From: Bacilli bacterium
GTDB lineage: Bacteria; Bacillota_I; Bacilli_A; RFN20; CAG-826
Assembly (NCBI GenBank): GCA_017626815.1
Contig: JAGAHY010000140.1
Span: forward strand, 404 to 64,403
DNA length: 64,000 bases
Reading direction: 5' to 3'
The position numbers were made by a program, and so were the translations under genes. A model generated the notes under the pieces. That model was not told where the DNA came from, did no database searches, and was given only the letters and a program-made list of their open reading frames with translations. Shown here piece by piece: positions 38,371 through 63,924 of the stretch (its first letter is position 1; each line of letters begins with the position of its first letter).

Positions 38371-38379
38371 TGATATAAT
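38371..38379 (+). promoter_or_regulatory. Extended -10 element TGaTATAAT upstream of precursor gene P1
   Basis: Perfect TATAAT with upstream TG, 27 nt before the GTG start, followed by an AAGGAG RBS. Confidence 0.4.
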
Positions 38380-38405
38380 GAAACCAAGCAAGGAGATTGT
38401 TTTCT

Positions 38406-38675
38406 GTGAAAGAAGAATTATTACAAGGCTTAACCGAAGAGCAAATCGCTAAGGTTAAGGCATGCAAGAACCAAGAAGAAATTTTGGCGGTGGCTAAAAA
38501 GGAAGGCATAGAGCTCACTGAAGAGCAACTCGAAGCCGTTAATGGAGGCTGTGGAACGCCGACCGTCGTCCCTTGTCCTAGGTGCAAATCGACGAATGTC
38601 TATTATTGCGGACAGAATCTATGCTCCGAAAAAGAGTATAAATGTAACGAGTGCGATTATCGGTTTTGGCGGTAA
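38406..38675 (+). CDS. RiPP-type precursor peptide P1: Nif11-like leader ending in GG, plus a Cys-rich zinc-ribbon-like core
   Basis: GTG start after an AAGGAG RBS; the ORF-track TTG start at 38397 is upstream of it. Leader MKEELLQGLTEEQIAKVKACKNQEEILAVAKKEGIELTEEQLEAVNGG. Core CGTPTVVPCPRCKSTNVYYCGQNLCSEKEYKCNECDYRFWR. Confidence 0.7.
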   Translation: MKEELLQGLTEEQIAKVKACKNQEEILAVAKKEGIELTEEQLEAVNGGCGTPTVVPCPRCKSTNVYYCGQNLCSEKEYKCNECDYRFWR

Positions 38676-38680
38676 TAACG

Positions 38681-38743
38681 ATAAAAGAAGAATTGTTACA
38701 AGGCTTAACCGAAGAACAACTAGAAGCTGCTTCGGGCGGATAG
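38681..38743 (+). pseudogene. Leader-only stub (I)KEELLQGLTEEQLEAASGG*, an internally deleted duplicate of the P1 leader with no core
   Basis: Starts 6 nt after the P1 stop. Looks like a deletion between the two TEEQ-encoding repeats of a leader. Confidence 0.45.
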
Positions 38744-38860
38744 TTACATTCCCTGAAGCATTTTGCAAAGAATGCGGCCCCCGTTGAAAAGAAAAAGGGC
38801 TTTGAAAGGTTTTCTGAAAAAATAGTCCTGATTTTCTGTTGAATATACAGAGGAATAATA

Positions 38861-38915
38861 AAGCCCGGTGCTGACACCATTGACTTGGATGTTAAACCGG
38901 GCTTTTCCTTCGTTT
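38861..38915 (+). terminator. Possible terminator after P1 (aagcccggt…accgggctt stem, large loop, T-rich tail)
   Basis: 9-bp stem with a 26-nt loop followed by ttccttcgtttta. The loop is atypically large. Confidence 0.3.
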
Positions 38916-40035: not shown

Positions 40036-40986
40036 TTAGCATCCAAATAGCACAAAAGTGGCCTGGCGACGATTTGCCTCAATCCCGAAAAAACAGGCCT
40101 CATTAGTGTTGTCAATCATGACCGGCTCTGTCCCAATATAGTTTTTGTTTGAGGAAACGACGACGTCCCATTTGGTCTTGATGAACCAAAAGGCAGTGGT
40201 TTCTGCTTCCCCGATTTTCATTGCGAAATGGCCGACGTTCCCGGAAGCGGGGGAGTAGGCGCAAACCACGGGTTTCGTTGCGTTGAAGGATCCGCTTGAC
40301 GCTTGGAAAGAGGACGTTAATGTTGCGCTGAGACCTGGGAGGTAATCCGAAAGCACAATGCCTAGCCCGGGTTGGTAGTTTTGGGAGGACTGCAGTGCGG
40401 AATACAAAGCGGACGCGGACGAATAGATGGAAGGATTCGTCGCGTTCGTAAGCCGATAGGTGTATATGAGGTCGAGCGAGGCGATTTGGGCGCAATCGTC
40501 GATGTCGCAGTTGAAAGAGACGGGAGTCCAATTCCCGAAGGGAGATGAGCCATAAATCGAAACGAGAGAGGGGATCCGACAAATGCAGGAATTAACGGAG
40601 AAGCCGTTTGAGGATATAAGATCCGAAAGCGGGGTCATTCCCGCCAGCGTGGACGCATAATAGTCGGGGTCCTCAGAGCTCGGCGACGCGTCCATGGAAT
40701 AGCCGTCAAGGTCGAAAGTCAATTCCTCGCCGTTGATTTCAGTCCGGAATCCGGTTACCTCGCCTGATGGGCTGAGAATGGGGGCGACGTCGGAATCATA
40801 CGAAAACCCCCTTTCCGCGCAATAAGCCGATAGTTGGGCGTCGATTCTTTCCATCGCGGTGCCTAGGGGCAGCTCTGTAGTACCTTCCCCGCATCCGACC
40901 AAGGCGGACGAAATCAGTATTAGTTGTTCGAGCATAGAGTTAACCTCCGAACAACAAAGTGGGGCAAAGCCTGGAAAAACCGCCAA
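40036..40986 (-). CDS. Putative lipoprotein of unknown function downstream of the ECF sigma/anti-sigma pair
   Basis: 316 aa. Signal peptide with LVGC lipobox after an N-terminal extension. Confidence 0.45.
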   Translation of the reverse strand: MAVFPGFAPLCCSEVNSMLEQLILISSALVGCGEGTTELPLGTAMERIDAQLSAYCAERGFSYDSDVAPILSPSGEVTGFRTEINGEELTFDLDGYSMDASPSSEDPDYYASTLAGMTPLSDLISSNGFSVNSCICRIPSLVSIYGSSPFGNWTPVSFNCDIDDCAQIASLDLIYTYRLTNATNPSIYSSASALYSALQSSQNYQPGLGIVLSDYLPGLSATLTSSFQASSGSFNATKPVVCAYSPASGNVGHFAMKIGEAETTAFWFIKTKWDVVVSSNKNYIGTEPVMIDNTNEACFFGIEANRRQATFVLFGC

Positions 40987-40991
40987 GCGAA

Positions 40992-41621
40992 TTAACCGAT
41001 TGGGGTGTAATAGACGGTTCCGAGCGCGAAAGATGAGGAATCACCAAAGCTGATGGTTATCGTTTTTTCGCTCGATTCCTCAAGAGGAAAGGAAATCGAG
41101 AACGGAGTTTTTTGGCTCAAGTATGAAGCTTCGCCTCGATATTCGCCCAGCTCGAAAGAGAGAACCCCGAATTCGAATGAGCCAAATGGGTTTTCAGTGA
41201 AGCGGACGCAGCAGACATAGTTGCCCTCCTTCCCAAAAAGCAAGGCAGTAGACGGGGCGTCGTTTCTTTTCTCCGTCACTTCGAGAGTGGAAAGGGAAAA
41301 GTCAATGCTTGGATCCGAACAGACCCATCGGCTGGCGGCAAATGTGCCATATAGAACGGGCCTTTGGCCGCCCTCCCCATAGTAACTTGGCTCATTCGAA
41401 AAATTGATCGCTAAAGGTATGACGATGGCCGCTGTGACGCAAACCGCCAAACCGGCGATGGCCATTGGGACCAGGATGCGACGTCTCCGTGGTGAGGGGC
41501 GGCCGTTTTGCGCGACGGTATCCCAATCGACGCCTTTGGTGACGCTTTCAAAGGAAGGCGGCTCTGGCGTCAGGGCGTCCGCGGCCTCGAAAACGCGCCT
41601 CTCGGTTCTATTCCTTTTCAT
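40992..41621 (-). CDS. Putative membrane anti-sigma factor (single TM)
   Basis: 209 aa. Overlaps the upstream ECF sigma gene. TM ILVPMAIAGLAVCVTAAIVIPLAI. Assignment by context. Confidence 0.5.
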   Translation of the reverse strand: MKRNRTERRVFEAADALTPEPPSFESVTKGVDWDTVAQNGRPSPRRRRILVPMAIAGLAVCVTAAIVIPLAINFSNEPSYYGEGGQRPVLYGTFAASRWVCSDPSIDFSLSTLEVTEKRNDAPSTALLFGKEGNYVCCVRFTENPFGSFEFGVLSFELGEYRGEASYLSQKTPFSISFPLEESSEKTITISFGDSSSFALGTVYYTPIG

Positions 41622-42174
41622 CCCTGAGCCTCCTCCTTAGTTCCTTAATGGCCTTTCTGTAGCGGTAGCACACTGCGTCCTCCCCCATTCCCAGCCTTTC
41701 GGCGATTTCCTTTTGGGTATAGTCATAGGCTGCCTTTAAGATCACGATGTCCGAGTCGGGGTGCCCGAGCCAGGCCTCGATTTTAGCGAACAATTCCCTG
41801 CCTTGGAGCAAATCCGGAATGCTTTGCCCCTGGTCCGCGGTCTCGCTCTCGTCGTCCATTTGGTCCAAACGCCGCTGTTTTTCCTTCCTGTGTCCGCAAA
41901 TGTACTTGGCGCTTTGGACCCAATAGTCCGCGACGCGGTCCACGGTCAGGAGCCTTTGCGGGTCTTTGAGCAGCCCGAGGAAGGATTCCTGGATGTCGTC
42001 GTCGGTTTCGCCATCCTTCCCAAACGAATCGATGAGGACGCGGTACACGAGGCGGACGTTGTCCTCGTATAGGCGCTCGAACGCCTTGGCAATCCTCGCG
42101 CCGTTTCCGCTTTTTATGGCCCTTTTCAGTTCTCTTTCCGCGTCCATTTCGGGGAAATTTTGGGCCTTCGTCAA
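41608..42174 (-). CDS. ECF-type RNA polymerase sigma factor, divergent from the radical-SAM maturase gene
   Basis: 188 aa. Region 2 and region 4 HTH (YTQKEIAERLGMGEDAVCYRYRKAIKELRRRL). Confidence 0.8.
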   Translation of the reverse strand: MTKAQNFPEMDAERELKRAIKSGNGARIAKAFERLYEDNVRLVYRVLIDSFGKDGETDDDIQESFLGLLKDPQRLLTVDRVADYWVQSAKYICGHRKEKQRRLDQMDDESETADQGQSIPDLLQGRELFAKIEAWLGHPDSDIVILKAAYDYTQKEIAERLGMGEDAVCYRYRKAIKELRRRLRDEKE

Positions 42175-42284
42175 TTGTATGTCTATATCTTTCTGATTAC
42201 CGCTCGTTTTTTGCCATTTTGCTCAGCAAAAAAATTTTTCTCTTTTCTTTGACGGAACAACCAGGGCTCCAGACACCTAATTAA

Positions 42285-43628
42285 ATGAACATGCTGAAAT
42301 TTCGGGCGTTAGGCAAAACGGTATACTACGACGAAAGATCCACTTTCTTTTCTTTGGATGAGCCTAGGCAAGAAGAGGTCCAATCCTTCCCGCCTATCCC
42401 ACCAATCGAAGAGCTGATTGCCGCGTCGAAGCCGACCGCCTACACGTTCTGCGTCGACGTGTCCGATTCCTGTAACCTACGCTGCGATTACTGCTTCAAC
42501 GAAACGAAAACGGGCAAAACGATCGATGCTGCAACAGCGATTTCCTATTTGGAGGCGATGTTTCATAAATACGACTCCGGCGAAAAGTACTTCGTCGACA
42601 TGTCCGGCAAGGGCGAGCCGTTGCTCGCGTTGAAAACAGTTTTGGAGATAGCGAGGTGGTGCAGGAGAAAACAGGACGAAATCCGGAAAGAGGTTCTGCC
42701 GCAGTTCGTCTGCAACGGGACGATGCTGTCCCCTTTGGTGGCGGAGGTTCTCCAAAACGAAGGGATTCTATTTGGGGTCAGCCTGGATGGAAACAAGCAA
42801 GTTCACGATTCGCATAGGAGGGACGCGAACGGAAATCCCACATTCGACGCGATTATCGACAACGTCAAATCGATACGCTTTCGGAACTACGTCGGTTGCG
42901 CAGCCACCCTTACCAAGGACGTGTTTCCGCTCGTCGAAGCGATAGATTCGCTGCTGCCGATATTCAAGACGATCAGCTTTCGGCCGGCTCGCGGCGCGTA
43001 TGCCTTCGACGATTCTTCCGGAAAACTTTGGGAAGACCAATACGAGCGATTGGGGTTTCGGCTGTTGAAAGACATCGAACGGGGAGACGCGTCTATTTTC
43101 CTCGCCCTAATGAACGGCGAAGACTATTTTGGGAGATACCTGGTTCGGGCAATAGGCTTCAAACGAACAATCGCCCGTTGCGACGCTTCGATATCCCGCT
43201 TCGCTTTGGATATCGACGGCAAGATATATCCATGCCCGGCTTGTTGCGAAGCAGGATTGGACGTCCGTTCCTTTGTCGACGGAGGATTATCCGCTGAGTT
43301 TTCAATCGAGGCCCAAGCCAAAAGCTGCCTGGGATGCAACATAAAGTACTTCTGCGGAGGCGAATGTCCCATTAATGCAACGCACGCTCTTGGGAACGAA
43401 GACGCCCTTTGCCGTTTCCGGAGAAAACTGATAACGATTGCCATGGTTTTGAGCGAAACATTGCGAACAACAAATACAAAACTCTACGATTCATTGACGG
43501 TGTTTTGCGATGAAAAAATCCTCAGGCAAAAAGCCAATCCAAAGTTGGCCGTCTTTTTGAATGCGCATCGCAACATGTCTTTTACGAAAGCAAAAGCAGC
43601 ATTCGATAAAGAATACCCAAGCTATTAA
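42285..43628 (+). CDS. Radical SAM/SPASM-domain peptide-modifying enzyme (maturase 1)
   Basis: 447 aa. CNLRCDYC (CxxxCxxC). C-terminal SPASM cysteine cluster CPACCEAG…CLGCNIKYFCGGECP…C. Confidence 0.85.
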   Translation: MNMLKFRALGKTVYYDERSTFFSLDEPRQEEVQSFPPIPPIEELIAASKPTAYTFCVDVSDSCNLRCDYCFNETKTGKTIDAATAISYLEAMFHKYDSGEKYFVDMSGKGEPLLALKTVLEIARWCRRKQDEIRKEVLPQFVCNGTMLSPLVAEVLQNEGILFGVSLDGNKQVHDSHRRDANGNPTFDAIIDNVKSIRFRNYVGCAATLTKDVFPLVEAIDSLLPIFKTISFRPARGAYAFDDSSGKLWEDQYERLGFRLLKDIERGDASIFLALMNGEDYFGRYLVRAIGFKRTIARCDASISRFALDIDGKIYPCPACCEAGLDVRSFVDGGLSAEFSIEAQAKSCLGCNIKYFCGGECPINATHALGNEDALCRFRRKLITIAMVLSETLRTTNTKLYDSLTVFCDEKILRQKANPKLAVFLNAHRNMSFTKAKAAFDKEYPSY

Positions 43629-43792
43629 CAATCGAACCGATTCTTCTAAATATCGTTTGGGAGCTTTGCTTTTTGATTACCCATATCTATTTATTTTTGG
43701 CGGAGGGTTTTGAAAATGCGACATTTAGTTAGCGAAGGCATTCCGGATCAATTCTCGGCCTTCATCGATGACAAGACATCAAGGGAGAAAAA

Positions 43793-44668
43793 ATGAATAT
43801 CACTACCTTACTTACTACAGGCGCGCTGATCATGTCAGTCGCCACAACTTATCATAATCCAATTCGAATCAATACGAACTTCAGTCACTACGCTACTTCT
43901 AACGGTGATCAACTCGTGATTGACAACGCCGACGGAAGGCTGACTTATTATACGAACATTTACAAAATCGGCTTCACTTCCGTCAGCAATATTTATGTGT
44001 TGGATACTTGGTTCAAATGGGAACCTGGAAAGGCTTTAGGATCCCCTTATTACACCGATTCTCAGCTTGGAAAATGCACCATTCACGTTGAGCCCTATCG
44101 GTATGTTGACAACGAAAACAACAAAACCGGTGGATCCATGCGCCAAATCGCCGCTTGGCCAACTGCTGATACAGGAACAGCTTTCTCCTTTTCAGCCGTT
44201 TTTGGCGACTCTTATTCTGGCATATTTGTCAATGAATCGACCGAAGATAAATCTTATGTCTTAGGATATGGGTCGAATCTAATTGTCCCCCAAAACGGAG
44301 GAACCCCCTTCGAGGTACAGTACTTGAGATCAAACGCCGTCAGCCATTATTACAACCACTATGAATTGACTAACACGATTAACGACGTGCCTTTGTCTTA
44401 TTCTTCCTCGAACACGAATTACGACCATTATGTCAACGAATGGGTTTTTGAACCGGTTTACGGTGGATCCGGAATTACCACGTTTGACTTCCATACCATC
44501 GTTATGTTTGAGATGTCGAAAGCGACAATCAACGTTGGGGAAAATGCGATGTGCTACCTATACTCTTTCAAGACACAAAACAGATATCCCGAACCAGTCC
44601 TGTGGTGGACCGTTCCGTCTTTGGGGACAGAGTATACCTACTCAGTGGTTGGCGTCGCTGGCGTATGA
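43793..44668 (+). CDS. Secreted protein of unknown function, translationally coupled to the downstream ABC transporter
   Basis: 291 aa. Signal peptide. 4-nt overlap with the next start. Confidence 0.5.
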   Translation: MNITTLLTTGALIMSVATTYHNPIRINTNFSHYATSNGDQLVIDNADGRLTYYTNIYKIGFTSVSNIYVLDTWFKWEPGKALGSPYYTDSQLGKCTIHVEPYRYVDNENNKTGGSMRQIAAWPTADTGTAFSFSAVFGDSYSGIFVNESTEDKSYVLGYGSNLIVPQNGGTPFEVQYLRSNAVSHYYNHYELTNTINDVPLSYSSSNTNYDHYVNEWVFEPVYGGSGITTFDFHTIVMFEMSKATINVGENAMCYLYSFKTQNRYPEPVLWWTVPSLGTEYTYSVVGVAGV

Positions 44669-47484
44669 TTCGGCTGAACAATGTCAGGAAATCCTTTTAT
44701 CTACCCGGCAGGAACAGGATTGACGTAATTAAACATGCCTCCTTGGAACTTCCAGAGGCTGGAATGGTTTTCGTTTTAGGGAAATCCGGCTCCGGCAAAT
44801 CCACCCTCCTCAATTTAATCGGGGGTCTTATTTCCCCGAGCGCAGGCTCTATTGTCTTTTCCGGATTCAAAGGCGAAAAACCGAAGATCTCGTTCTGCTT
44901 CCAAGGCGGGAACGTCTTTGGCGAACTCACGGTGCTAGAAAATGTTCTGATTGCAAAAGCTAAGAAAGAAAAAGAAAGCGTAGGCAAGGCAAAGGACATT
45001 CTTGCTCAGATTGGGCTATCCGAATTGTCTGACCGTAAGGCATATATGCTTTCAGGCGGCGAGCAGCAGCGTTTAGCTTTGGCCAGAGCACTATATCAAG
45101 ACTCTGATGTGGTTTTGGCAGACGAACCAACCGGATCGCTCGACCGTGCCTCCTCGCTTGGAGTTTTTAATCTTCTCAAAGAGATTTCGGATTCTAGATT
45201 GGTACTTGTCGTATCCCACGATCAAGAGGCGGCGGAAAAATACGGCGATCGCATCATCCGAATCGAAGATGGAATTATTACTGATGTCTTTCGTCAAGAC
45301 CAAATAGTTGTTTCCGACGGATTAACCAGGCTCAAAGACAAATTGGCGCCGAACCCTGGCCTTGTTGCAAAGATTGCATGGCGCCAAGCTTTTCGTCGAC
45401 CTCTTGCCCTTTTGCTGACCATATTGCTGACCGGGCTTTCCCTTGGTGCGGCAATGTTTGGATTCGGGCTTGGGATGGGGGCTTCAGACACGAATGTGGC
45501 ATCGTCTGTGATCGCCTCTGGCATTGACAGCATCGTAGCGCTAAACACGATAAAGGGGGTCGACGTTGGATTTGGGCCCCTTGATCTTGCAGAGGCTGGG
45601 GAATTGTGCAAAGCCCCCTGCGTACCTCTATATAACATTCCTCATTCATATTCCTACGATAGTTACAGTTACCGCTTGGAGGTTTCTAAGCCGTGCGTTC
45701 ATAATCCGTTATTTCAATCGTCCCGTATCCGTTACTGCTTCCCGACAAATTTAGAGAACTTAAAAAACGTAGGCCTAGATTTGATAGCCGGCGCCCTTCC
45801 GACTGGATTAAGCGAGATCGTGGTCCCGTATTGCCAATATGAGGAATATGCAAACGCGGGTTTCCTCGGAACATCGGGCGGTATCCCTGCCACAGCCATC
45901 GCTGACCCGGCCAGCTTTTTATCTTATCGCCCCGCCATTTCTGTTTTCGGCCGTCAGATGGAAATCGTTGGGATTGTCGACACGCATCTTCCGGAAAAAC
46001 TATTTTCTTATGTTTCGGCGGACGAGCGAGACTTTTTTGGCAATATTTGCCAATCCGCCTATAAAACAGGTATCGAGAATTCTCTCCACGTCTGCGCGTT
46101 TGGAAGCCAGGACTTTTGCGACAATTTTGCCAAATCCGTGAGATTTATAGAAATTCCTGAGGGAGCCGTCGCTATCGCTTCGTGGACGGATGGCCAATCA
46201 TCTGTTTCCTCTTTTTCGAGAGCGTGTTCGGCTGGCGTTCAAACCGAAGAAAAAGAAGGCATTTTCGCCTCGGCGGAAATGCTACGCGCCAGCGCAGGTT
46301 TTGAAGTAAAAGCACCTTTTTACGATTTCGAAAATGCGAGCCTTTTTCGTATTCCGCGCTTTTCTTCCATCACTTCGAGTGAAACTTCGGTCGCGGGAAA
46401 AGCCTTCGCGCCATTGCCTGACTTAGGGATTAATAACGCTTTTGTGCTGTCGGCATGTTGCGATTATGTAAATCAGCAAGGCCTGCCATCCAATCGATAC
46501 CTTTTGGAGGTGAAGGCCAATGAGGATTTCTTAAAACTTAAGGCATTTGACAGTAGTGTCCAAATCCCGGATTTTGGAACTCCAGAAGGCGAGGACGTTC
46601 TGAAAACCTATTTCGCGTGGAGTTTATCTATGGGGGACTTCGGAATAGAGCAATACCCTCTATCCTCTTCCTTTTACAATGACGTTTTCGATATTGGCAT
46701 CACCGGAGAAACGATCGTTAGGGCGGCGACGATAGATCTACTTCGGAAAAACGATCTCCTCCCAAAGGGTAATGTTTCTTTGCGTATAGAAGGCGATTTT
46801 AGCTTTGATCAAGAATTCCCTTGCGCAGGCATCGCGGTTCTGCCCGGAGACGGAGACGGGAAACGTTGTTATTTAACAGATGGAATATTTGAAACGGTTG
46901 CCCAGGCTCTCCCAGACGGAAGAACGATGACCGCTTGCTGCTTTAAAACACCTTCTTTAGATGCCGTTACTTCTCTGTTTTCGCAATATAAGGCATCGTT
47001 TGGCTCTTCAAAGAGGGCCTATCGATCCGAAATTGCCCAATTCTCATTTGCCCAAGATTTCAAACAGCGCTTTGAGAATCTCCAAGATGTCATGATTTGG
47101 CTTTCCGTTGGGCTCTTCTCATTCAACATCCTGTTACAAGTCGTCTTTGCTCTTATCCGACTAGACGCCCAGGGGAAGACAGCAGGGCTTTTGCTGGGAA
47201 TCGGCGGGAGGTTGGCACATTTGTACCTCTTTTCCTCATTTTCTCAATTCATATCATCCGTGATAGGTTGCTTGGTTGGCGCTACAATCGCTGTGCTTGT
47301 TTCGGCCTCAATAAATGCAAACTTTATGGTGGAGACAGGATTAATGCTCCCTGTTTTCACTTTCCCTGTCGCCTTGGTTGTGACAATGGGGCTTGGGTCG
47401 ATTGCTCTGGTGCTATTGATGTGTTTTGCCAATTCTGTTGGTCTCAAGAAAAAAGGGGCAGCCACATTACTAAAAAGGGAATAG
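44665..47484 (+). CDS. Large MacB-like ABC transporter (ATPase plus extended extracytoplasmic domain plus FtsX-type permease)
   Basis: Start MIRLNNVRKSF. GKSGSGKST, LSGGEQQR, VLADEPTGSLD, VSHD. TM helix after the ATPase and a C-terminal 3-TM bundle. Confidence 0.8.
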   Translation: MIRLNNVRKSFYLPGRNRIDVIKHASLELPEAGMVFVLGKSGSGKSTLLNLIGGLISPSAGSIVFSGFKGEKPKISFCFQGGNVFGELTVLENVLIAKAKKEKESVGKAKDILAQIGLSELSDRKAYMLSGGEQQRLALARALYQDSDVVLADEPTGSLDRASSLGVFNLLKEISDSRLVLVVSHDQEAAEKYGDRIIRIEDGIITDVFRQDQIVVSDGLTRLKDKLAPNPGLVAKIAWRQAFRRPLALLLTILLTGLSLGAAMFGFGLGMGASDTNVASSVIASGIDSIVALNTIKGVDVGFGPLDLAEAGELCKAPCVPLYNIPHSYSYDSYSYRLEVSKPCVHNPLFQSSRIRYCFPTNLENLKNVGLDLIAGALPTGLSEIVVPYCQYEEYANAGFLGTSGGIPATAIADPASFLSYRPAISVFGRQMEIVGIVDTHLPEKLFSYVSADERDFFGNICQSAYKTGIENSLHVCAFGSQDFCDNFAKSVRFIEIPEGAVAIASWTDGQSSVSSFSRACSAGVQTEEKEGIFASAEMLRASAGFEVKAPFYDFENASLFRIPRFSSITSSETSVAGKAFAPLPDLGINNAFVLSACCDYVNQQGLPSNRYLLEVKANEDFLKLKAFDSSVQIPDFGTPEGEDVLKTYFAWSLSMGDFGIEQYPLSSSFYNDVFDIGITGETIVRAATIDLLRKNDLLPKGNVSLRIEGDFSFDQEFPCAGIAVLPGDGDGKRCYLTDGIFETVAQALPDGRTMTACCFKTPSLDAVTSLFSQYKASFGSSKRAYRSEIAQFSFAQDFKQRFENLQDVMIWLSVGLFSFNILLQVVFALIRLDAQGKTAGLLLGIGGRLAHLYLFSSFSQFISSVIGCLVGATIAVLVSASINANFMVETGLMLPVFTFPVALVVTMGLGSIALVLLMCFANSVGLKKKGAATLLKRE

Positions 47485-47648
47485 AGATTTATGGGCTGAA
47501 AAAGGCGTTAGGTTAGGCGCGAGCTATCGATTCAAAAAATAGGCGATATGTATTTATCGTGAAGATGGGCTAATTCAGGCTTTCAAAAGATATCTCTGGC
47601 ACGCGTTGGGCGGAACGCCAGGCCAACGGAGTTCGCGCATATCGCAGC

Positions 47649-47724
47649 GGTGGTGTTATACGTCAAAGATTTTTACGCGCGAAAAGTCAGATTATTTTCA
47701 AAGAACGCCTGGAAAATTGTGAGG
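47649..47724. repeat. Right arm of the inverted repeat pair (partner 30548-30624)
   Basis: See the left arm. Confidence 0.6.
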
Positions 47725-47772
47725 TCGCGGTTTTTCCTACTCAAGAGCCATTAGATTAAAGGAGGATACAAA

Positions 47773-49281: not shown

Positions 49282-49285
49282 ATAA

Positions 49286-49973: not shown

Positions 49974-50084
49974 ACAATAACCCCCTTAAAATTTATATCA
50001 CTCAACAAATAAACCGGAAGGTCACCGACCAACAGATAACGTTTCTCGACTATCTAGATTAATAATTATTTTCCTGAACTTATT

Positions 50085-50093
50085 TGATACAAT
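50085..50093 (+). promoter_or_regulatory. Extended -10 element TGaTACAAT upstream of P2
   Basis: 23 nt before the ATG at 50117, with an AGGAG RBS in between. Confidence 0.35.
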
Positions 50094-50116
50094 GAAAAAA
50101 ACAGGAGTTCACTAAA

Positions 50117-51336: not shown

Positions 51337-51346
51337 GGATTTTGTT

Positions 51347-53508: not shown

Positions 53509-53661
53509 TTATCCTGCCTCAGGAATGTAGGGATAAGGCTTGCGTCACCTTATTGTCCTGTCGAAGATTGGCAAAAAGCGCCGCTAAAGATTTCTTCGCC
53601 CCTTATTCGTATCATTGGGCGATTTAACCATAATCGGCATGGGATTTGCCGCTGAAATTCG

Positions 53662-56165: not shown

Positions 56166-57341
56166 ATGACGGACAAAGAGACCCTCACCTTGATGTGGAA
56201 GGACTACGAAGTGCTTTCCTTCGAGGTGAATTACGAAAAATATGGCCTTCAGTTCTTGGAAGAGAAAGAGCATTTTGATAAAGCCCCCTATGACTTGGCA
56301 AAGGCAAAAGACAAACGCCTTGGCCTACTTCGCTTTTTCGGCAGTAGGGCGATTCCCTCCATGCGCAGCGGTTTCCAAGCCATCATGGATGCGACGCATT
56401 GCCGCAATGAATTGGAACTATCGTTTAAAGGGCATGGGCTCTCCCTCTCCAGTCATTATTGGATCAAACGGGAAGGGGAGAATCTCCGCTATGAGGACAT
56501 CAATTTTTTTACCCACCAATGGGATGATTCTTTCGGCAGGGCTCTCCTGCGCGGTGACTATGAGGCGCTAGGGGGATGCGATTTCAATGTCCCTGACATC
56601 ACCACCCCGGGATGGGGAAACAAAGGCTGGCTCTATGAAGACGGGCCTAAGCTTTATAAGCGCGGCTTAGATCCCGAGCATTCCGAAGAGGCGATATGTG
56701 AAGTCTTAGCGTCAAGCATCGCGAGCAGGATCATCCCTGGCGGCGAAGTCCTTCCCTACGAACTAAGGAAATTCGACGGGAAGTATGTTTCGGTTTCTTC
56801 CTGTTTCCTCGGAATGGACGAGGAATTGGTCCCCTTATCTTCTATTTTGTCCGCGGAGTTATCGGAGCTTTATCGGGAAAAGGCCAGGAACAAAGACCTG
56901 AATAAAGAATTTTTCGATAAGCTCGCCCAAACTGGCTACGCCGAGTGGTCGACGTTCTTCGTCAAGGTGGCGTGCTTACGTTCCCTGTGCTTTGTTTCCG
57001 ATTTGCATTTTGGCAACCTCTCCGCGATCCAAAACATGGAGACCGGAGCATTAAGGCTCGCCCCGATTTACGATTTCGGCGGCGCCTTTGGCTCTTCGGC
57101 GAAAGGGAGGCAATTCCTTGCTAACGCGAATAAAGCGGCCTTCTTGCTCATCTATTTCGTGTATGGGGACCTCAATCCCGATTGGGATTATTCGTGGTAT
57201 GATCCCAATCGGCTCATCGGCGCGGAAGAGGAGATCCGGGACTATTTATCCAAAACAGGTTTTTATACGCCAGAGTACATCGACTGTGCTCTTGACATCT
57301 TCAGGCGGCAGAAGAAAATGTTGGATGAAATGAAAAAATAA
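56166..57341 (+). CDS. Protein with a HipA_C-like kinase-fold signature (…SDLHFGNLSAI…LAPIYDFG…), function unknown
   Basis: 391 aa. The D-x-H-x-x-N-L-S and LAPxYD motifs resemble the HipA catalytic and Mg-binding loops. Ends 13 nt before radical-SAM maturase 2. Confidence 0.4.
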   Translation: MTDKETLTLMWKDYEVLSFEVNYEKYGLQFLEEKEHFDKAPYDLAKAKDKRLGLLRFFGSRAIPSMRSGFQAIMDATHCRNELELSFKGHGLSLSSHYWIKREGENLRYEDINFFTHQWDDSFGRALLRGDYEALGGCDFNVPDITTPGWGNKGWLYEDGPKLYKRGLDPEHSEEAICEVLASSIASRIIPGGEVLPYELRKFDGKYVSVSSCFLGMDEELVPLSSILSAELSELYREKARNKDLNKEFFDKLAQTGYAEWSTFFVKVACLRSLCFVSDLHFGNLSAIQNMETGALRLAPIYDFGGAFGSSAKGRQFLANANKAAFLLIYFVYGDLNPDWDYSWYDPNRLIGAEEEIRDYLSKTGFYTPEYIDCALDIFRRQKKMLDEMKK

Positions 57342-57353: not shown

Positions 57354-58748
57354 ATGTATTATCGATTAAAAGACACTATTGCATTACGAAAATGGAGATA
57401 CGTTGAACGCGCCGTATACCGCAAGGGCGTGGAGAACGCCTTCGGTGTGACCGAAGCGGAATTCGAGCTTTTGCAGCAGTGCGATGGGGAAACGGACATC
57501 GAGCCCAATCCTTACTTGGCTGGCTTGCTCGACCGCCAGCTCATCGAGCCTTGCGAAAAGGGCCAGAAGGCGAATCCGTGGTCCTTGCTCCATACCTATG
57601 ATAATTATTACTTCCCGAAGATGAACCTTATGATCACCGGGAAATGCAACTTGAATTGCCTCCATTGTTTTAACGCGAAAGACAACGCCCCCTTAAATAC
57701 GGAACTTTCCTATGAGCAGGTGCTGAATATCCTCGATCAGGCCCGCGATATCGGCGTGCACGCGTTCACGATCACCGGTGGCGAGCCGCTGGTGCACAAA
57801 CGCTTCCTCGATATCGTCCGCGCCATCTATGAAAGAGATATGTTCATCTTCGAATTGAACACAAATGGCTTGCTCATCACCCAGGAGATGCTGGATGTCT
57901 TTAAGGAACTAGGGTGCTACCCGCTAATCAAGATTTCTTTCGATGGCGTCGGCTACCATAACTGGATCCGCCAGCATCCTAAGGCGGAAGAGCTTACCCT
58001 TAAAGCCATCGAACTTTGCATCAAAAACGGCTTTGCGGTGAAGGCGCAAGTCCAAGTGAACCGTAAAAACGTCGATTCCATGGAAAAGACCGCGAGGCTT
58101 TTAAACGACATGGGCGTCACGGAGATGCGCATCATCCGCACCACGGAAGCGCCCCGCTGGGAAAAGAATTCGCCCAATTCTTCGTTGACGATCGAGGAAT
58201 ATTTCGAGCAAATGACGGCTTTTGCCAAGAATTATATGCAAAGTGATATGACCATGACTATCGACATTTGGCAGTTGATGAGACTTTATCCATCCGCGAA
58301 AACGTATGATCTCGTCCCCATCGCCTGCGACAAGGACGAATTTAATATCCGCATCCCCATGTGCAAAGGAAACCGTGGCATGATCGCGATTTCTTCGAGT
58401 GGAGAAGCGGTGCCCTGCTTGCAAATGTCAGGCTGGTTCCTCGAACGGGGAATCAGTCTTGGAAACGTCTTGAAAACCCCGTTAAAAGAGCTGGTCACCA
58501 AAAGCGATTACCTCAACCTCGCGATGGCGACGTTGCTGAAGCAAATCCTCGAAAACGATAAGTGTGGCAACTGCAAATACTATAAGGCCTGCACGGGTGG
58601 TTGCCCCGCCTTAGGATTGCTCTATTCCAAAAACGGTGATTATTATCATGAAGATGTGACAAAATGTGCTTTCTTTGAAAATGGCTGGTATGATTTAATA
58701 GTAAAAGAATTGGCGTCTTGGCGCCTATTGAAACCCCTCAACATCTGA
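57354..58748 (+). CDS. Radical SAM/SPASM-domain peptide-modifying enzyme (maturase 2)
   Basis: 464 aa. CNLNCLHC. SPASM cluster CGNCKYYKACTGGCP…C. Confidence 0.85.
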   Translation: MYYRLKDTIALRKWRYVERAVYRKGVENAFGVTEAEFELLQQCDGETDIEPNPYLAGLLDRQLIEPCEKGQKANPWSLLHTYDNYYFPKMNLMITGKCNLNCLHCFNAKDNAPLNTELSYEQVLNILDQARDIGVHAFTITGGEPLVHKRFLDIVRAIYERDMFIFELNTNGLLITQEMLDVFKELGCYPLIKISFDGVGYHNWIRQHPKAEELTLKAIELCIKNGFAVKAQVQVNRKNVDSMEKTARLLNDMGVTEMRIIRTTEAPRWEKNSPNSSLTIEEYFEQMTAFAKNYMQSDMTMTIDIWQLMRLYPSAKTYDLVPIACDKDEFNIRIPMCKGNRGMIAISSSGEAVPCLQMSGWFLERGISLGNVLKTPLKELVTKSDYLNLAMATLLKQILENDKCGNCKYYKACTGGCPALGLLYSKNGDYYHEDVTKCAFFENGWYDLIVKELASWRLLKPLNI

Positions 58749-59194: not shown

Positions 59195-61372
59195 ATGAAA
59201 AAGAAGGAAATCAAGAAACCGACAAGCGGCAGGAAGGTCGCGGATGTCCCGATCATCATGCAGTTGGAGGCCCTCGAATGCGGGGCCGCCTCTTTAAGCA
59301 TGGTCATGGCCTATTACGAAAAATGGGTCGCTTTGGAGCAGGTTCGCGTCGATTGCGGCGTCTCCCGTAATGGTTCTAACGCGAAAAATATCTGCCGCGC
59401 CGCCGAGAAATACGGCTTTAAGGCCAAAGGCTATGCCTATAACATTCAGAAATTGAAGGAAAGGGGCAAATTCCCCGCGATTATCCACTGGGGCGGCGGT
59501 CACTTCGTCGTCTTGGATGGCATTCGTGGCAACAAAGCCATCATCAACGACCCCGCGAAAGGGTTGGTCAAAGTCGATTTGAAGACTTTTGACAAGATTT
59601 TCACCGGCATCTACATCGAAATCGTTCCCGGCGAGAATTTCGAACCCGGCGGCAAGAAAAAATCCATCTTCGCCTTCGCTAAAAAGAGGCTTAAAGGCGC
59701 GGTTGCCTTGATTACTTTCTTCGCGATCACCACGATCGTGTTCTATCTGTTCACGATTATCAATCCGGCGTTAAACCAAGTATTCGTCGACCGACTGTTG
59801 GGCGGCAATAATCCGAATTGGCTGATTCCATTCATCGGCATTTTCGGTGGCCTTGGCTTGCTTCAGGTCATCGTCACGGCCGTCCAAACCCTCTATGAAT
59901 ATAAGATTAGGGGCAAATTGGACCTTATTGGTTCGACCACCTACATGTGGAAGATTTTAAGGCTCCCCATCGACTTCTTCTCCCAGCGCATGGTCGGCGA
60001 CTTACAATCGCGCCAGAGCGAAAACGCCTCCATCGCCGAAACGTTGGTCAACGTCTTCGCGCCGCTGCTTTTCAATTCCATCATGCTCATCGTCTATTTG
60101 GCGGTCATGATCAGCAAGAGCGCGTGGCTGGCCTTAGTCGGCGTCATCACCGTTCTCATCAACATCTTCGTCTCCCAATACATTTCCAAGGTCCGCGTCA
60201 ATATCTCCAGGGTCCAGGCCCGCGATAATTCGCGTCTTGGCGCGATGACTTCCAAGGGCATCGAGATGATCGAAACCATCAAGTCTAACGGTGCGGAAAC
60301 CTCCTATTTCTCGTCCTGGCAAGAAGCCGCCGACAGCGTCTACGCCCAAAACGTGAAGATGGCCAAAACCAATCAGTTTATCGGCCTCGTTCCGGCGCTT
60401 GTGTCGATGATTGCCAACTATTCCGTCTTGATTCTCGGCGTTTATTTCACGATTAACGGCAGTTTCACCGTCGGTTCTATTTTGGCTTTCCAGGGTCTAT
60501 TAAGCGCCTTTATGTCGCCGGCGATGACCATTATCTCCAGCGGACAGACGTTGCAGGAGATGCGCACCCAGATGGAACGTGTCGACGACGTTTTGGAATA
60601 CCCTCTTGATTCTAACGTCACCCGCGAAATCGAGATGGAGCACGTCTCCAAAATCAAAGGCAACCTGATCCTTAGAGATCTCACCTTTGGTTATTCTCGA
60701 TTGGGCCGCCCGGTCTTATCGAATTTCAATCTCGAGATCAAACAGGGCCAGAAGGTCGCCATCGTCGGTTCCACCGGCAGCGGCAAATCCACGATTTCCA
60801 AATTGATCTCCGGGCTTTACGCGCCATGGTCTGGCGAGATTATCTTCGATGGAAAGCGGATTGAAGAAATCGACCATGAAATCTTCACTTCCTCGATCGC
60901 CGTCGTCGATCAGGACATCACCCTCTACGAAGACACGATCATGAACAACTTGAAGATGTGGGACCAGTCCATCACCGACATGGAAGTCAAAATGGCCTGT
61001 ATTGATGCCCAAATCCACAAGACCATCGCCGCGAGGGAAGGCGGTTATAATGCCCCCGTCCTCGAGAACGGCAAAAACTTCTCCGGTGGCGAGAAGCAAC
61101 GTTTAGAAATCGCGCGTTCCTTGGCGATGGACCCGAGCATCATCATCCTCGATGAAGCCACCAGCGCCCTCGATGCCAAAACGGAATTTGACGTCGTTAA
61201 TGCCATCAAAGAACGCGGTATTACCACGATTGTCATCGCGCATAGACTTTCCACGATCCGCGACGCCGATTTGATCGTCGTCCTCGATCATGGCCATATT
61301 GTCGAGCAGGGCAACCATGACACCTTAATGGCCCTGAAAGGCGCTTATTACGATTTGGTGACGAACGAATAG
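59195..61372 (+). CDS. Bacteriocin-type ABC exporter with an N-terminal C39 double-glycine peptidase domain
   Basis: Start MKKKEIKK; the ORF-track start at 59153 is upstream of it. C39 Cys in QLEALECGAASLSMV and His in HFVVL. 6-TM domain. GSTGSGKST, FSGGEKQR, IIILDEATSALD. Confidence 0.85.
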   Translation: MKKKEIKKPTSGRKVADVPIIMQLEALECGAASLSMVMAYYEKWVALEQVRVDCGVSRNGSNAKNICRAAEKYGFKAKGYAYNIQKLKERGKFPAIIHWGGGHFVVLDGIRGNKAIINDPAKGLVKVDLKTFDKIFTGIYIEIVPGENFEPGGKKKSIFAFAKKRLKGAVALITFFAITTIVFYLFTIINPALNQVFVDRLLGGNNPNWLIPFIGIFGGLGLLQVIVTAVQTLYEYKIRGKLDLIGSTTYMWKILRLPIDFFSQRMVGDLQSRQSENASIAETLVNVFAPLLFNSIMLIVYLAVMISKSAWLALVGVITVLINIFVSQYISKVRVNISRVQARDNSRLGAMTSKGIEMIETIKSNGAETSYFSSWQEAADSVYAQNVKMAKTNQFIGLVPALVSMIANYSVLILGVYFTINGSFTVGSILAFQGLLSAFMSPAMTIISSGQTLQEMRTQMERVDDVLEYPLDSNVTREIEMEHVSKIKGNLILRDLTFGYSRLGRPVLSNFNLEIKQGQKVAIVGSTGSGKSTISKLISGLYAPWSGEIIFDGKRIEEIDHEIFTSSIAVVDQDITLYEDTIMNNLKMWDQSITDMEVKMACIDAQIHKTIAAREGGYNAPVLENGKNFSGGEKQRLEIARSLAMDPSIIILDEATSALDAKTEFDVVNAIKERGITTIVIAHRLSTIRDADLIVVLDHGHIVEQGNHDTLMALKGAYYDLVTNE

Positions 61373-61387
61373 AAAGAGAAACGGCAT

Positions 61388-63571
61388 ATGGGTTGGTTCG
61401 AAGAGCAAGTAAAGCAAAGAAAGAAACTCGATGCGAAGACGTTCGAGGATTCTTTTAAGTCGCTCGCCGGTATTCACGTCAAAAACCAGAAGAATCTTTC
61501 TGACGAAGAAATCCGAGAGAATTTCGCCATCTCGCAGATTCTTTCCTATTTTCATCATCAGATGGTGGATATCCCCGCCGGCGTCACGAAATTCAAAGAT
61601 AAACTTAACTACATCCTGGGCCATTTCGGCATCGAATATCATAACGTCCAACTTACCGACGCTTATGTGAATGAAAATGGCTCCCCGTTATTGATTTATA
61701 CCCTCATCGGGGAAATCCCCATCATTTTGTTCCCTGCCAAGGGCAATCAGTATTACTACATCCATTACGGAACCGGCAAGAAAACCTATATCGACGCGGC
61801 CATGATCCATGGTCTTGAAATTGATGCGATTAGTTTCTATCGCCCCCTTCCGAGCAAAGGCGTTTCTATTAAGGAATACGTGAAATATATCGGGAAGTCG
61901 ATAAGGCCCTTGGATATCGTTCTCCTCATCGTCTTTGCCGCGCTTTCCTCTGGCGTTGGCCTTTTGGTGCCTTACCTCACCCAAAGATTAACGGGTGAAG
62001 TGGTGCTCAATAAAGACATTAGCCTATTCATCGCGGTCTCGCTTTATGTCGTCGCGGCCGCGACTGGCGTATTGCTGGTTAAGGCGGTTCAGGCTTTCGT
62101 CAACACGCGGATTATGTTGAAAATTCAAAAATCCGTGCAGGAAGCGACGATGATGAGGGTTTTGAACCTTCCGGCTGCCTTCTTTAAGAAATACAATACC
62201 GGTGAATTGACCGCTCGTTTCTCCAGCGTCAATAGCTTGGCGAGCATGATTGTCAACGGCATCTTCACGACCCTCGTTTCGGTGGTCATGTCCCTCGCTT
62301 ATTTATTCCAACTCGCCGGCTTTGCGTCTACGCTAGTCCCCATTGTTGTGGCGATCTTGTTTGCGACCACGGCCTTCAGCGTTGCCATCGCCTTGATTCA
62401 GAAGAAATATACCCGACAGACCCTTGAGCTATCTTCCAAGGAGTCCGGCGTCACCTATGAAATGATCAACGGCATCCAAAAGATTAGGCTATCCGGCTCG
62501 GAAAAGCGCGTCTTCGCCAAGTGGGCGAGCGCCTATGCCCGTTCCGCGGAGGTGAGATACCATCCTCCTCTGATTTTGCGTTTATCCCCTGCAATTTCCC
62601 TATTAATTACATTACTTGGTAACGTCGCTATCTACTATGTGGCCGCTAGAAGTGGTCTCTCGGCTGGTAGCTACATGGCTTTCGTCACCGGCTATGGCGT
62701 CCTTTCCGGCGCCTTCGCCTCCGTGACTTCCATGGTCGGCGTCATCACCTCGATTAAGCCGACTTACGACATGGCTAAGCCCATCTTAGAGGCCGAGCCG
62801 GAGACCGCTCAGAACAAACTCGTCTTGGAAAAGGTCAAAGGTAACATCCGCTTCGAAAACGTCTCCTTCAAATACATCGAAAATGGACCGCTTATCCTAA
62901 ACGACCTCTCCCTCGATATCAAAGAAGGCGAATATGTCGCGATTGTCGGCCAAACTGGATGCGGCAAATCCACCCTAATCCGCGTGCTTCTCGGGTTCGA
63001 AGAGCCCTTAAGCGGGCGCGTGACGGTGGATGGCCATGACGTCAAAGACCTTGACCCCTCGTCGCTTCGTAGGCGCATCGGCACGGTCCTTCAAAACGGT
63101 ACGCTTTTCCACGCGGATATCTTCTCCAACATCATCATTTCTTGCCCCAACGCAAGCGAAGAAGATGCCTGGGCCGCGGCGGAAATCGCCGATATCGCCG
63201 ACGACATCAGAGAGATGCCGATGGGCATGAAGACGGTCATCTCGGAAGGCCAAGGCGGCATTTCCGGCGGCCAGAAGCAGCGCATCATGATCGCCCGCGC
63301 CATTGTCCATCACCCCAAGATCTTGATCTTCGATGAGGCCACCAGTGCCCTCGACAATAAGACGCAAAAGAGCATCACCGAATCCATCAACAAGCTCAAT
63401 TGCACCCGACTTGTCATCGCGCACAGGCTTTCCACGATTAAAAACGCGGATAGAATTATCATGCTCGAAGGCGGTAAGATTATCGAAGAAGGCAGCTACG
63501 ATTCCTTGATTGCCCAAAAAGGCAAATTCGCGGAACTGGTCGAGAGACAGCGCCTGGATAACAACGAATAA
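61388..63571 (+). CDS. Second ABC exporter subunit with an N-terminal peptidase-like domain lacking the catalytic Cys
   Basis: 727 aa. GQTGCGKST, ISGGQKQR, ILIFDEATSALD. The N-terminal ~150 aa are C39-like in size but carry no Cys/His pair. Confidence 0.8.
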   Translation: MGWFEEQVKQRKKLDAKTFEDSFKSLAGIHVKNQKNLSDEEIRENFAISQILSYFHHQMVDIPAGVTKFKDKLNYILGHFGIEYHNVQLTDAYVNENGSPLLIYTLIGEIPIILFPAKGNQYYYIHYGTGKKTYIDAAMIHGLEIDAISFYRPLPSKGVSIKEYVKYIGKSIRPLDIVLLIVFAALSSGVGLLVPYLTQRLTGEVVLNKDISLFIAVSLYVVAAATGVLLVKAVQAFVNTRIMLKIQKSVQEATMMRVLNLPAAFFKKYNTGELTARFSSVNSLASMIVNGIFTTLVSVVMSLAYLFQLAGFASTLVPIVVAILFATTAFSVAIALIQKKYTRQTLELSSKESGVTYEMINGIQKIRLSGSEKRVFAKWASAYARSAEVRYHPPLILRLSPAISLLITLLGNVAIYYVAARSGLSAGSYMAFVTGYGVLSGAFASVTSMVGVITSIKPTYDMAKPILEAEPETAQNKLVLEKVKGNIRFENVSFKYIENGPLILNDLSLDIKEGEYVAIVGQTGCGKSTLIRVLLGFEEPLSGRVTVDGHDVKDLDPSSLRRRIGTVLQNGTLFHADIFSNIIISCPNASEEDAWAAAEIADIADDIREMPMGMKTVISEGQGGISGGQKQRIMIARAIVHHPKILIFDEATSALDNKTQKSITESINKLNCTRLVIAHRLSTIKNADRIIMLEGGKIIEEGSYDSLIAQKGKFAELVERQRLDNNE

Positions 63572-63586
63572 AAAGGAGGATTACTC

Positions 63587-63880
63587 ATGGAACACAAACT
63601 TAATAATGGAACGCTGACCATTTTCCTGAAAGGGAAGATCAATTCCAGCAACTCAGAAGAAGCCGAACAGGAAATCAACCGCATCATTGCGGATAATTCC
63701 TTCACCAGTCTCGTCTTCGACCTTGGCGAGCTCGTTTATATCTCCTCTGCGGGATTAAGGATCCTCCTCGGGGTCAAACAAGAACACGATGACACCAAGC
63801 TGGTCAATGTCTCCGACGCCATCTACGAAATCCTCGTTATGGTCGGCTTTGATAGCGTCCTTACCATTGAAAGACAATAG
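63587..63880 (+). CDS. STAS-domain anti-sigma-factor antagonist (SpoIIAA/RsbV-like)
   Basis: 97 aa. Conserved phosphorylatable region …LVYISSAGLRILL. Confidence 0.75.
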   Translation: MEHKLNNGTLTIFLKGKINSSNSEEAEQEINRIIADNSFTSLVFDLGELVYISSAGLRILLGVKQEHDDTKLVNVSDAIYEILVMVGFDSVLTIERQ

Positions 63881-63899
63881 GGGAGCGGTAACTTATTAT

Positions 63900-63924
63900 G
63901 CGCGGTTATTTGGCCGCGCTTTTT
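63900..63924 (+). terminator. Intrinsic terminator (gcgcgg-ttatttgg-ccgcgc plus TTTTT)
   Basis: Perfect 6-bp GC stem, 8-nt loop, 5-T run. Confidence 0.6.

Follow-up and report, generated by a model that had tools for sequence, protein, structure and literature searches.

Prochlorosins and related Nif11 systems (ProcA/ProcM; Haft's Nif11/NHLP, TIGR03796/03797/03794) rely on many precursor genes per genome, dispersed or arrayed, in which one conserved Nif11-type leader ending in a double glycine (GG) precedes very different cores, and on a single processing and export locus with a C39-peptidase ATP-binding cassette (ABC) protein, a partner ABC protein and a HlyD-type protein. These traits are shared by a system that we analyzed between positions 38,371 and 63,924 of a 64,000-nt stretch of contig JAGAHY010000140.1, from a Bacilli bacterium (GenBank assembly GCA_017626815.1). 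We refer to the whole stretch as the window and to its four intact precursors as P1 to P4. Unlike in the prochlorosins, the candidate maturase is a radical S-adenosylmethionine (rSAM)/SPASM enzyme (here rSAM2), possibly with a HipA-like kinase, and not LanM; the cores are zinc-ribbon-like domains of 40–55 aa and not short Cys/Ser/Thr peptides; the HlyD-type protein has only ~129 aa; the hosts are rumen Firmicutes; and the leader and both ABC proteins narrowly miss the cut-offs of the profile models. We lean towards reading the locus as one representative of an undescribed system, widespread in ruminant-gut Firmicutes, in which a leader guides the secretion and maturation of peptides, including the mechanism proposed below.

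Two other groups of systems resemble parts of this locus. The rSAM/SPASM thioether peptides (sactipeptides such as SkfA/SkfB; ranthipeptides/SCIFF with PapB and CteB; systems with the Nif11-class maturases TIGR04064 and TIGR04103) also combine an rSAM/SPASM enzyme bearing an N-terminal extension with Cys-containing cores behind a leader, and in relatives of our locus a precursor adjoins the maturase. They differ in that rSAM2 scores far below the cut-off of every family, that the Cys pattern of the large cores is that of a zinc ribbon and that modification would probably be aimed at one N-proximal Cys. In loci for class II bacteriocins and pheromones (blp, com, pln), a double-glycine leader is cleaved and its cargo exported by one peptidase-ABC protein; in blp/com systems the pheromone and the bacteriocins use a common GG leader and one exporter. 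As in our system, the same leader in these loci precedes several effectors and also one small peptide that belongs to another type, with co-regulation through direct repeats in the promoters. The present system differs in that its leader is 48 aa long and Nif11-like rather than ~20 aa, that it includes an rSAM enzyme and a kinase, that its regulation apparently involves partner switching and a REC-domain regulator rather than a histidine kinase with LytTR, and that no immunity genes were seen. The original prediction for this locus did not recognise the combination as a described class of peptides that are made by the ribosome and modified after translation (RiPPs), and we likewise found no curated family model and no paper covering it: literature on Nif11 leaders, zinc ribbons, radical SAM, the rumen and peptidase-containing ABC transporters yielded no relevant paper.

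All four precursors translate as originally described, and both the translations and their alignment bear out a conserved leader of 48 aa terminated by GG. The coordinates given for P4 also stand, and its strand, missing from the original prediction, is now fixed as minus. Two decayed copies had been announced as well, and both were located (Table 1). The first, directly after P1, looks like the product of an internal deletion between two LTEEQ repeats of the leader. Opposite the second lies a 133-aa open reading frame (ORF; 53254–53655, plus strand) that is called as a gene in public assemblies and matches no family; it is probably spurious. Searching P1–P4 by tblastn across the window returned only six related places, namely the four intact and the two decayed copies. 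The copies matched each other with E values of 1e-19 to 1e-24 (1e-22 for P1 against the others) and the rest of the window stayed at noise level, so that, judging by these scores, the similarity among them is far beyond chance. In the alignment of P1–P4, G47-G48 and the pattern CP.C...C..C are invariant.

The leaders were compared with the available profile models. On the Pfam Nif11 model (PF07862), P1–P4 scored 18.1–23.7 bits against a gathering cut-off of 23.8, which even the best of them, P3 (23.7 bits), just missed. They also fell short on TIGR03798 (16–23.5 bits; cut-off 32.3) and on the NHLP leader model TIGR03793 (13–14 bits, E = 0.04–0.07; cut-off 50.9). Across the family, 106 of 120 members matched PF07862 at E ≤ 0.01, and precomputed PF07862 matches exist for a few relatives. 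These results support the Nif11-like leaders of the original prediction, the likeness being weak but consistent and the peptides related but divergent. All four window peptides carry the motif ELT-EQLEAVxGG, with V, L and L at positions -4, -7 and -12, and no variation at G47 and G48 occurs among 120 sequences. Double-glycine leaders typically have hydrophobic residues at these three positions.

The peptide family is large and appears to be unnamed. A profile of the four window peptides (E ≤ 1e-3; clusters at 90% identity) recovered 2,745 protein clusters, all about 86–104 aa, whose only names were mis-annotations such as RpoP or 'transposase-like'. When only the leader was used as a profile, 1.84 billion representatives yielded 2,240 clusters (50% identity). 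We assembled a set of 80 related loci from GTDB species genomes, covering at least 33 metagenome-assembled genomes (MAGs); these loci are designated by L-numbers. All 80 come from ruminant-gut MAGs, of Erysipelotrichaceae, 'Bacilli'/Bacillales, Lachnospiraceae, Pseudobutyrivibrio and one Coriobacteriaceae. In these loci we counted 187 ORFs with the leader, the longest tandem array comprising 11 genes (L001), and copies per individual MAG number at least 15, which is a lower bound. Mean identity across 170 genes was 71% for the leaders and 29% for the cores, and 263 cores fell into 62 clusters. Over 103 orthologous pairs, the ratio of nonsynonymous to synonymous substitution rates (dN/dS) was 0.14 in the leader and 0.17 in the core, the latter biased downwards by the selection of pairs with at least 60% core identity. 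Together with the conserved core types, these ratios indicate real genes under purifying selection, each core type having its own conserved sequence. Diversifying selection on the cores was considered and is not supported at this dN/dS of ~0.17 within orthologue groups, among pairs so preselected.

Each window precursor has relatives of its own. Orthologues of P1 share 75–90% identity with it (P0052, P0068, P0092, P0100), and its start codon, GTG 38406, falls at the same position as the MKEELL start in these. P2 has many 98-aa orthologues (P0016 and P0022 among them), while P4 is identical to P0001, a protein of a 'Bacilli bacterium' MAG, and has ~50 orthologous clusters. A near-identical P3 orthologue adjoins a P2 orthologue at L015 3670; in this locus, from a bin labelled Saccharibacteria, near-identical orthologues of both peptides stand side by side. 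In the window, P2 and P3 lie in a patch (49000–52000) with a GC-content of 35–39%, as compared with ~50% elsewhere, which also contains the unknown ORFs 51019–51336 and 51347–51670. The low-GC patch and the presence of this pair in the L015 bin suggest recent horizontal transfer or mis-binning.

The cores of P1, P2, P3 and P4 each contain two CxxC knuckles, spaced 19, 15, 14 and 16 residues apart, in agreement with the range of 14–19 reported initially. The arrangement is also kept elsewhere: at least two CxxC knuckles were found in 263 of 278 distinct cores, with a spacing of 14–28 residues and a first knuckle that usually reads CPxCG. Aromatic residues follow the second knuckle in CPxCG...CxxCG cores. 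P1 reached 24.5 bits on Zn_ribbon_InsA (cut-off 26.1), and family members show sub-threshold matches to many zinc-ribbon Pfam families. An AlphaFold2 model of P4, built with 120 homologues, consists of three leader helices followed by β-hairpins in the core, with low confidence (predicted local distance difference test score, pLDDT, of 61 overall and 64–76 in the core). Foldseek found nothing significant for this model in the PDB (best E = 0.5), and zinc ribbons dominate the non-significant list. Small zinc-ribbon proteins (Zn_ribbon_InsA, TFIIB/RpoP-type, LysW, HVO_2753-like) share with the cores the two knuckles, the usual CPxCG start, the spacing and the predicted β-hairpins, and family members have been mis-annotated as RpoP or transposase-like proteins. 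By their Cys patterns, the cores look like zinc ribbons. They differ from known zinc ribbons, which are intracellular, in standing behind a cleavable export leader, in having a fifth conserved Cys and in having diversified into dozens of types per community.

This fifth Cys, which the original prediction did not single out, is invariant. It lies 0–4 residues after the GG in all 263 distinct zinc-ribbon cores, and the first knuckle comes 4–16 residues later (mode 6). Two residues after this Cys, 54% of the cores have Ser or Thr, and three residues after it, 43%. In relatives, the short cores discussed below begin in the same way as the zinc-ribbon cores. The pattern points to this N-proximal Cys as the likeliest modification site. 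Thioether cross-linking of the knuckle Cys is possible, though less likely than metal binding by the knuckles plus modification of the N-proximal Cys.

We further analyzed which neighbouring genes accompany the peptides by comparing all window proteins with the 80 related loci (tblastn). A block consisting of the kinase gene at 56166, rSAM2, a short HlyD-like gene, ABC1, ABC2 and a STAS gene recurs in related loci. In L002, L012, L071 and L075–L078, rSAM2 is 72–78% and ABC1 78–81% identical to the window proteins, and SpoIIE and RsbW-like genes are usually near; ABC2 is 66–69% identical in five loci. The kinase has homologues of 49–60% identity in eight related loci, and the RsbW-like gene adjoins the module again in seven. 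STAS follows ABC2 in L012, L075, L076, L077 and L033, and in L033 a P4-type gene comes after ABC2-STAS. SpoIIE recurs in relatives, in some of them fused to HATPase_c_2. The set required for partner switching (SpoIIE/PP2C, STAS and the HATPase_c_2 kinase) is thus encoded together in the window and recurs with the module in relatives; neither this set nor the HipA-like kinase had been noticed before.

Within this module, rSAM2 is, by its distribution, the only maturase candidate conserved with the exporter. Pfam matches and the translation place its motifs at CNLNCLHC (CxxxCxxC) and CGNCKYYKACTGGC (SPASM CxxCx5Cx3C). More than 100 protein clusters resemble it at 75–87% identity, all 463–467 aa and labelled only generically as 'radical SAM protein with SPASM domain'. 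No NCBIfam cut-off was reached: the best model was AhbD (115 bits; cut-off 500), and thioether-maturase families gave 68–115 bits against cut-offs of 340–725. Its N-terminal extension of ~88 aa may be a leader-binding domain. The kinase was identified from its predicted fold (AlphaFold2 pLDDT 93.5; Foldseek to HipA, 4pu5 and 3tpt, E = 1e-7, probability 1.0, TM ~0.55) and from invariant catalytic residues (D279-x-H281-x-x-N284 and D303), with a weak match to Pfam HipA_C (E = 0.02). As originally predicted, a C39-peptidase ABC exporter is followed by a partner ABC protein; the catalytic Gln, Cys, His and Asp of the C39 domain are intact (QLEALECG, GHFVVL, NDP). The profile scores place the exporter pair closest to the NHLP/Nif11 bacteriocin ABC1 and ABC2 models, just below their cut-offs (820 against 853 bits for ABC1 on TIGR03796). 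The HlyD-like protein matches TIGR03794 weakly and over its first 60 residues only, in a model of 421 positions; its length of 128–130 aa is conserved in relatives, which indicates that the gene is not truncated.

The original prediction had included two further genes in the system, a second rSAM/SPASM enzyme (rSAM1) and a MacB-like ABC transporter, and this part does not hold. No homologue of rSAM1, of the adjacent sigma factor or of ORFs 43793, 47773 and 49286 was found in the 80 related loci, and the MacB-like protein gave only partial matches in its ABC domain, covering less than half of its length. On other contigs, orthologues of P1 have, like P1 itself, DUF4143 ATPases and toxin-antitoxin genes as neighbours, with no rSAM gene near; peptide genes in L027, L090 and L093 are flanked by genes of these two kinds as well. 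Both rSAM1 and the MacB-like protein were rejected as parts of the system, and by their distribution they are chance neighbours, rSAM2 alone travelling with the exporter.

These results bear on the chemistry first proposed for the locus, in which two rSAM/SPASM enzymes would cross-link the knuckle Cys as in sacti- or ranthipeptides and the C39 ABC and MacB-like transporters would export the products. Such a scheme would fit with both enzymes being of the rSAM/SPASM type, with the best match of rSAM1 being the ranthipeptide maturase PapB (143 bits), with SkfB being the closest solved relative of rSAM2 (E = 7e-11, over the rSAM core only) and with the abundance of Cys in the cores. We nevertheless consider it improbable: neither enzyme reaches the cut-off of any maturase family, rSAM1 and its neighbours do not accompany the peptides in related loci, and the CPxCG...CxxCG pattern, with its spacing of 14–28 and its aromatic residues after the second knuckle, is a zinc-ribbon signature unlike known sacti- or ranthipeptide cores.

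Table 1. Positions of the precursor genes, the conserved module and the rSAM1 neighbourhood in the window.
Feature	Position	Strand	Basis and remarks
P1 precursor	38406-38675	+	Translation; 48-aa Nif11-like GG leader; core CGTPTVVPCPRC...CNEC
Decayed leader remnant	38681-38743	+	Reads KEELLQGLTEEQLEAASGG*; without core
P2 precursor	50117-50413	+	Translation; core CGTTTGYWGCPYCG...CFGCG
P3 precursor	50485-50751	+	Translation; core GCRGGRCPKCG...CSKCQ
Decayed precursor copy	53305-53505	-	N-terminus lost; in-frame stop after GGNCQA
P4 precursor	53738-54013	-	Translation; core NCLNDIDCPNCG...CPHCG
RsbW-like anti-sigma serine kinase (HATPase_c_2)	54065-54472	-	Pfam E 3e-22; NCBIfam RsbW E 1.5e-10
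SpoIIE/PP2C phosphatase, long N-terminal region	54469-56016	-	Pfam SpoIIE E 1e-45
HipA-like protein kinase	56166-57341	+	Predicted fold and catalytic motif; 12 nt upstream of rSAM2
rSAM2, radical SAM/SPASM enzyme, ~88-aa N-terminal extension	57354-58748	+	Pfam Radical_SAM and SPASM
Short HlyD-like membrane protein, 129 aa	58801-59190	+	Weak TIGR03794 match, first 60 residues of the protein
ABC1, C39-peptidase ABC exporter (peptidase-containing ABC transporter)	59195-61372	+	Peptidase_C39 E 3e-32; ABC_membrane and ABC_tran
ABC2, partner ABC permease/ATPase without peptidase domain	61388-63571	+	TIGR03797 660 bits, cut-off 709
STAS anti-sigma-factor antagonist	63587-63880	+	Pfam STAS E 8e-13; TIGR00377 E 1e-13
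Lipoprotein-like ORF	40036-40986		rSAM1 neighbourhood
Possible membrane anti-sigma protein	40992-41621		rSAM1 neighbourhood
ECF-type sigma factor	41608-42174	-	Beside rSAM1
rSAM1, radical SAM/SPASM	42285-43628	+	CxxxCxxC and SPASM CxxCx5Cx3C in the translated ORF
MacB-like ABC	44665-47484	+	ABC ATPase fused to large permease-like region

Genes for rSAM2 are present in seven of the 80 related loci, and in all seven a peptide with the same leader and a short core directly adjoins rSAM2. These cores, for example GG|ACTTEDEDHKKRKIDS and GG|CDSSNKDNKKRKIES, have one Cys. In L087, two short-core peptide genes flank a gene for a SpoIIE-HATPase fusion. The leader-only search also revealed two recurring short classes, one basic (C...[HK]RKI[DE]S) and one acidic and ending in P[IV]xNPF, both of which start with Cys. 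In the window, the gap between the kinase gene and rSAM2 is only 12 nt, and P4 sits 52 nt downstream of the RsbW-like gene on the same strand; by gene order, P4 occupies the position equivalent to that of the short-core peptide of relatives. The short-core peptide is probably the primary substrate of rSAM2 and may serve as a signal, with the partner-switching module as the route by which it is sensed.

The arrangement in these seven loci raises what we consider the main rival explanation, namely that the zinc-ribbon peptides are unmodified secreted miniproteins, similar to class II bacteriocins or effectors, that borrow the leader and the C39 exporter, while rSAM2 and the kinase act solely on a modified short-core pheromone that this genome has lost or encodes elsewhere. 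The peptide adjoining rSAM2 is of the short-core type in every rSAM2 locus and never of the zinc-ribbon type, L087 has two such peptides, the zinc-ribbon peptides of Lachnospiraceae loci have no rSAM gene near them, and the layout parallels that of blp/com systems. On the other hand, the N-proximal Cys found in all 263 zinc-ribbon cores, matching the start of the short cores, would be hard to explain if only the short peptides were modified. The entire 48-aa leader is conserved, more than would be needed by the C39 domain, which speaks for another partner that binds the leader, and rSAM2 remains intact in this species though its locus is without a short peptide. We therefore regard unmodified cargo as unlikely but as a serious competitor to leader-guided maturation.

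A further line of evidence comes from promoter regions. In low-GC relatives, the direct repeat GTGGCAC-N4-TGTGACA, with an 11-bp period, lies just upstream of the -10 box. Of 168 regions upstream of peptide genes, 75 have it at -59 ± 1 nt relative to the start codon, and the 2.2 Mb of locus sequence contain only 110 matches. The other matches stand before genes for kinase homologues (three loci), STAS, short peptides and several secreted proteins, and before the HlyD-ABC operon. This common motif links the peptides and the module as a regulon in the low-GC relatives, and it is the strongest evidence connecting the dispersed zinc-ribbon genes to the rSAM2-exporter locus. A REC-domain response regulator with an apparently OmpR/PhoB-like C-terminal region adjoins the short peptide in five loci and is the obvious candidate for the activator of this regulon.

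Some sites of the direct repeat precede genes for secreted or lipoprotein-like products of ~300 aa or more (L002 3890, L009 4990, L047 7504, L048 3930, L050 3229 and 4683, L003 13231, L046 6406 and L076 11656). Several of these ~300-aa proteins have TLTID.SN.SNF...G..YRGTFKT.LGND in common, and they may be further members of the regulon. We also observed what is, by gene content, a variant of the locus without rSAM gene in Lachnospiraceae/Pseudobutyrivibrio (L065 10001–16454 and L063). Here, the gene order begins with a leader peptide whose core is long, acidic, rich in Pro and has a single Cys (ACQEPNDNPFDK...); after it come an unknown protein of 283 aa, two proteins of the S41-peptidase type, STAS, SpoIIE and an RsbW-like protein.

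Zinc ribbons are typically intracellular, and the peptides might accordingly stay in the cytoplasm as Nif11 and zinc-ribbon regulators or nucleic-acid binders, for instance as inputs to partner switching, the proximity of the exporter being incidental. The SpoIIE and RsbW-like genes have P4 directly downstream and most arrays are far from any exporter, which would fit with such a role. Nevertheless, the GG is invariant within a canonical double-glycine leader pattern, the peptides and the exporter operon have a promoter motif in common, a dedicated C39 exporter of NHLP/Nif11 type is conserved with the family, and the same leader also carries short cores that form no domain. A cytoplasmic role is thus very improbable.

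Several observations weigh against leader-guided maturation of the zinc-ribbon peptides as the function of this locus. As noted, the neighbour of rSAM2 in the seven related loci is always a short-core peptide, and none was found in the window, even at E ≤ 50. No precursor abuts rSAM2 in the window either, the nearest being P4, at a distance of 3.3 kb and on the other strand. Lachnospiraceae loci contain zinc-ribbon peptides and the kinase with no rSAM gene within 10 kb, which indicates that rSAM2 may not be needed for these peptides. Searching the N-terminus of rSAM2 for a RiPP recognition element gave no PqqD Pfam match, and residues 1–90 gave no PDB sequence match. The kinase could possibly be, or derive from, the toxin of a toxin-antitoxin pair: in three loci, an ORF of 76–78 aa directly follows the kinase gene (L002 6209–6445, L019 10685–10915 and L027 16723–16959), of which the one in L002 scores as a Phd/YefM-type antitoxin and the other two were identified by position and length; the window has no such gene. 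The window (~50% GC) contains neither the direct-repeat motif nor the REC regulator, and no common 8-mer was found upstream of its peptide and module genes, so that the evidence for a regulon comes from low-GC relatives only. The P4 model is weak (pLDDT 61) and has no significant fold match, and no immunity gene was seen.

Under the reading that we favour, the leader would bring each precursor to rSAM2 and perhaps to the HipA-like kinase. The enzyme, perhaps together with the kinase, would modify the segment after the cleavage site, that is, the invariant extra Cys and the Ser/Thr that follows, and by analogy with SPASM maturases a thioether made by rSAM2 would be the likeliest chemistry. The C39 domain would then cut after the GG and the ABC pair would export the product. 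Once exported into the anoxic rumen, the core would bind zinc through its two CxxC knuckles and fold into a small stable domain. Bacterial competition or signalling would be the likeliest role of the exported products. The chemistry, the zinc binding and the biological role are those that we infer from comparison of sequences.

If this is correct, Nif11-type leaders and C39 exporters would carry small metal-binding domains besides short peptides, and in anoxic habitats zinc sites may stand in for disulfides in stabilising secreted miniproteins. Both rSAM2 and the HipA-like kinase fall outside any characterised maturase family and point to a simple common modification tag. As the leader and the exporter stay constant and the folded core could be exchanged, the system would also be an attractive scaffold for the engineering of peptide libraries, and the natural products are candidate rumen bacteriocins or signals. 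A more elaborate version, which we put forward tentatively as possible, is that anaerobic gut Firmicutes secrete through this system a combinatorial library of folded, zinc-stabilised mini-domains, each with an invariant Cys-x-Ser/Thr tag beside the cleavage site that is modified by the rSAM enzyme, perhaps with the help of the kinase, from a regulon induced by the modified short-core peptide through a membrane PP2C partner-switching circuit. If true, this would represent a new class of RiPPs or bacteriocins, with a constant leader and tag and a protein-like domain as variable payload.

The remaining genes of the region form several distinct groups. The rSAM1 neighbourhood (40036–49732) looks like a separate unit, in which no leader-type precursor was found for rSAM1; on the plus strand, this enzyme is accompanied by a secreted protein of 291 aa, by the ABC-permease fusion and by two ORFs without assigned function. 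Upstream of P1, positions 25106–38249 look like an accessory or defence island: they encode AbiEi/AbiEii (25106–26445), a Fic protein (27241–28284) within a patch of 33% GC, a pair of helix-turn-helix (HTH)-ABC and ABC-FtsX proteins (32025–36296) and a DUF4143 ATPase (36951–38249). A second HTH-ABC and ABC-FtsX pair lies further upstream (7206–11416). Just upstream of P2 and on the opposite strand, a leaderless protein of 114 aa (49629–49973, minus strand) has an N-terminal Zn_Ribbon_1 domain (E = 4e-9) and is unrelated to the leader family. Between P3 and P4 is a gene for a MazE-type antitoxin (51897–52154), and a sister assembly (L082 11466–11824) has an adjoining PIN-domain fragment; judging from these sequences, the two may be a decaying toxin-antitoxin pair.

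Rfam gave no match over the whole window and none, even at E ≤ 1, for its structured-looking last 500 nt. The STAS gene is followed by a GC-rich stretch with hairpins (63880–64000). Five independent assemblies of this species contain the STAS gene, and in each the contig stops ~75–135 nt beyond it, which suggests that a repeat lies past that point.

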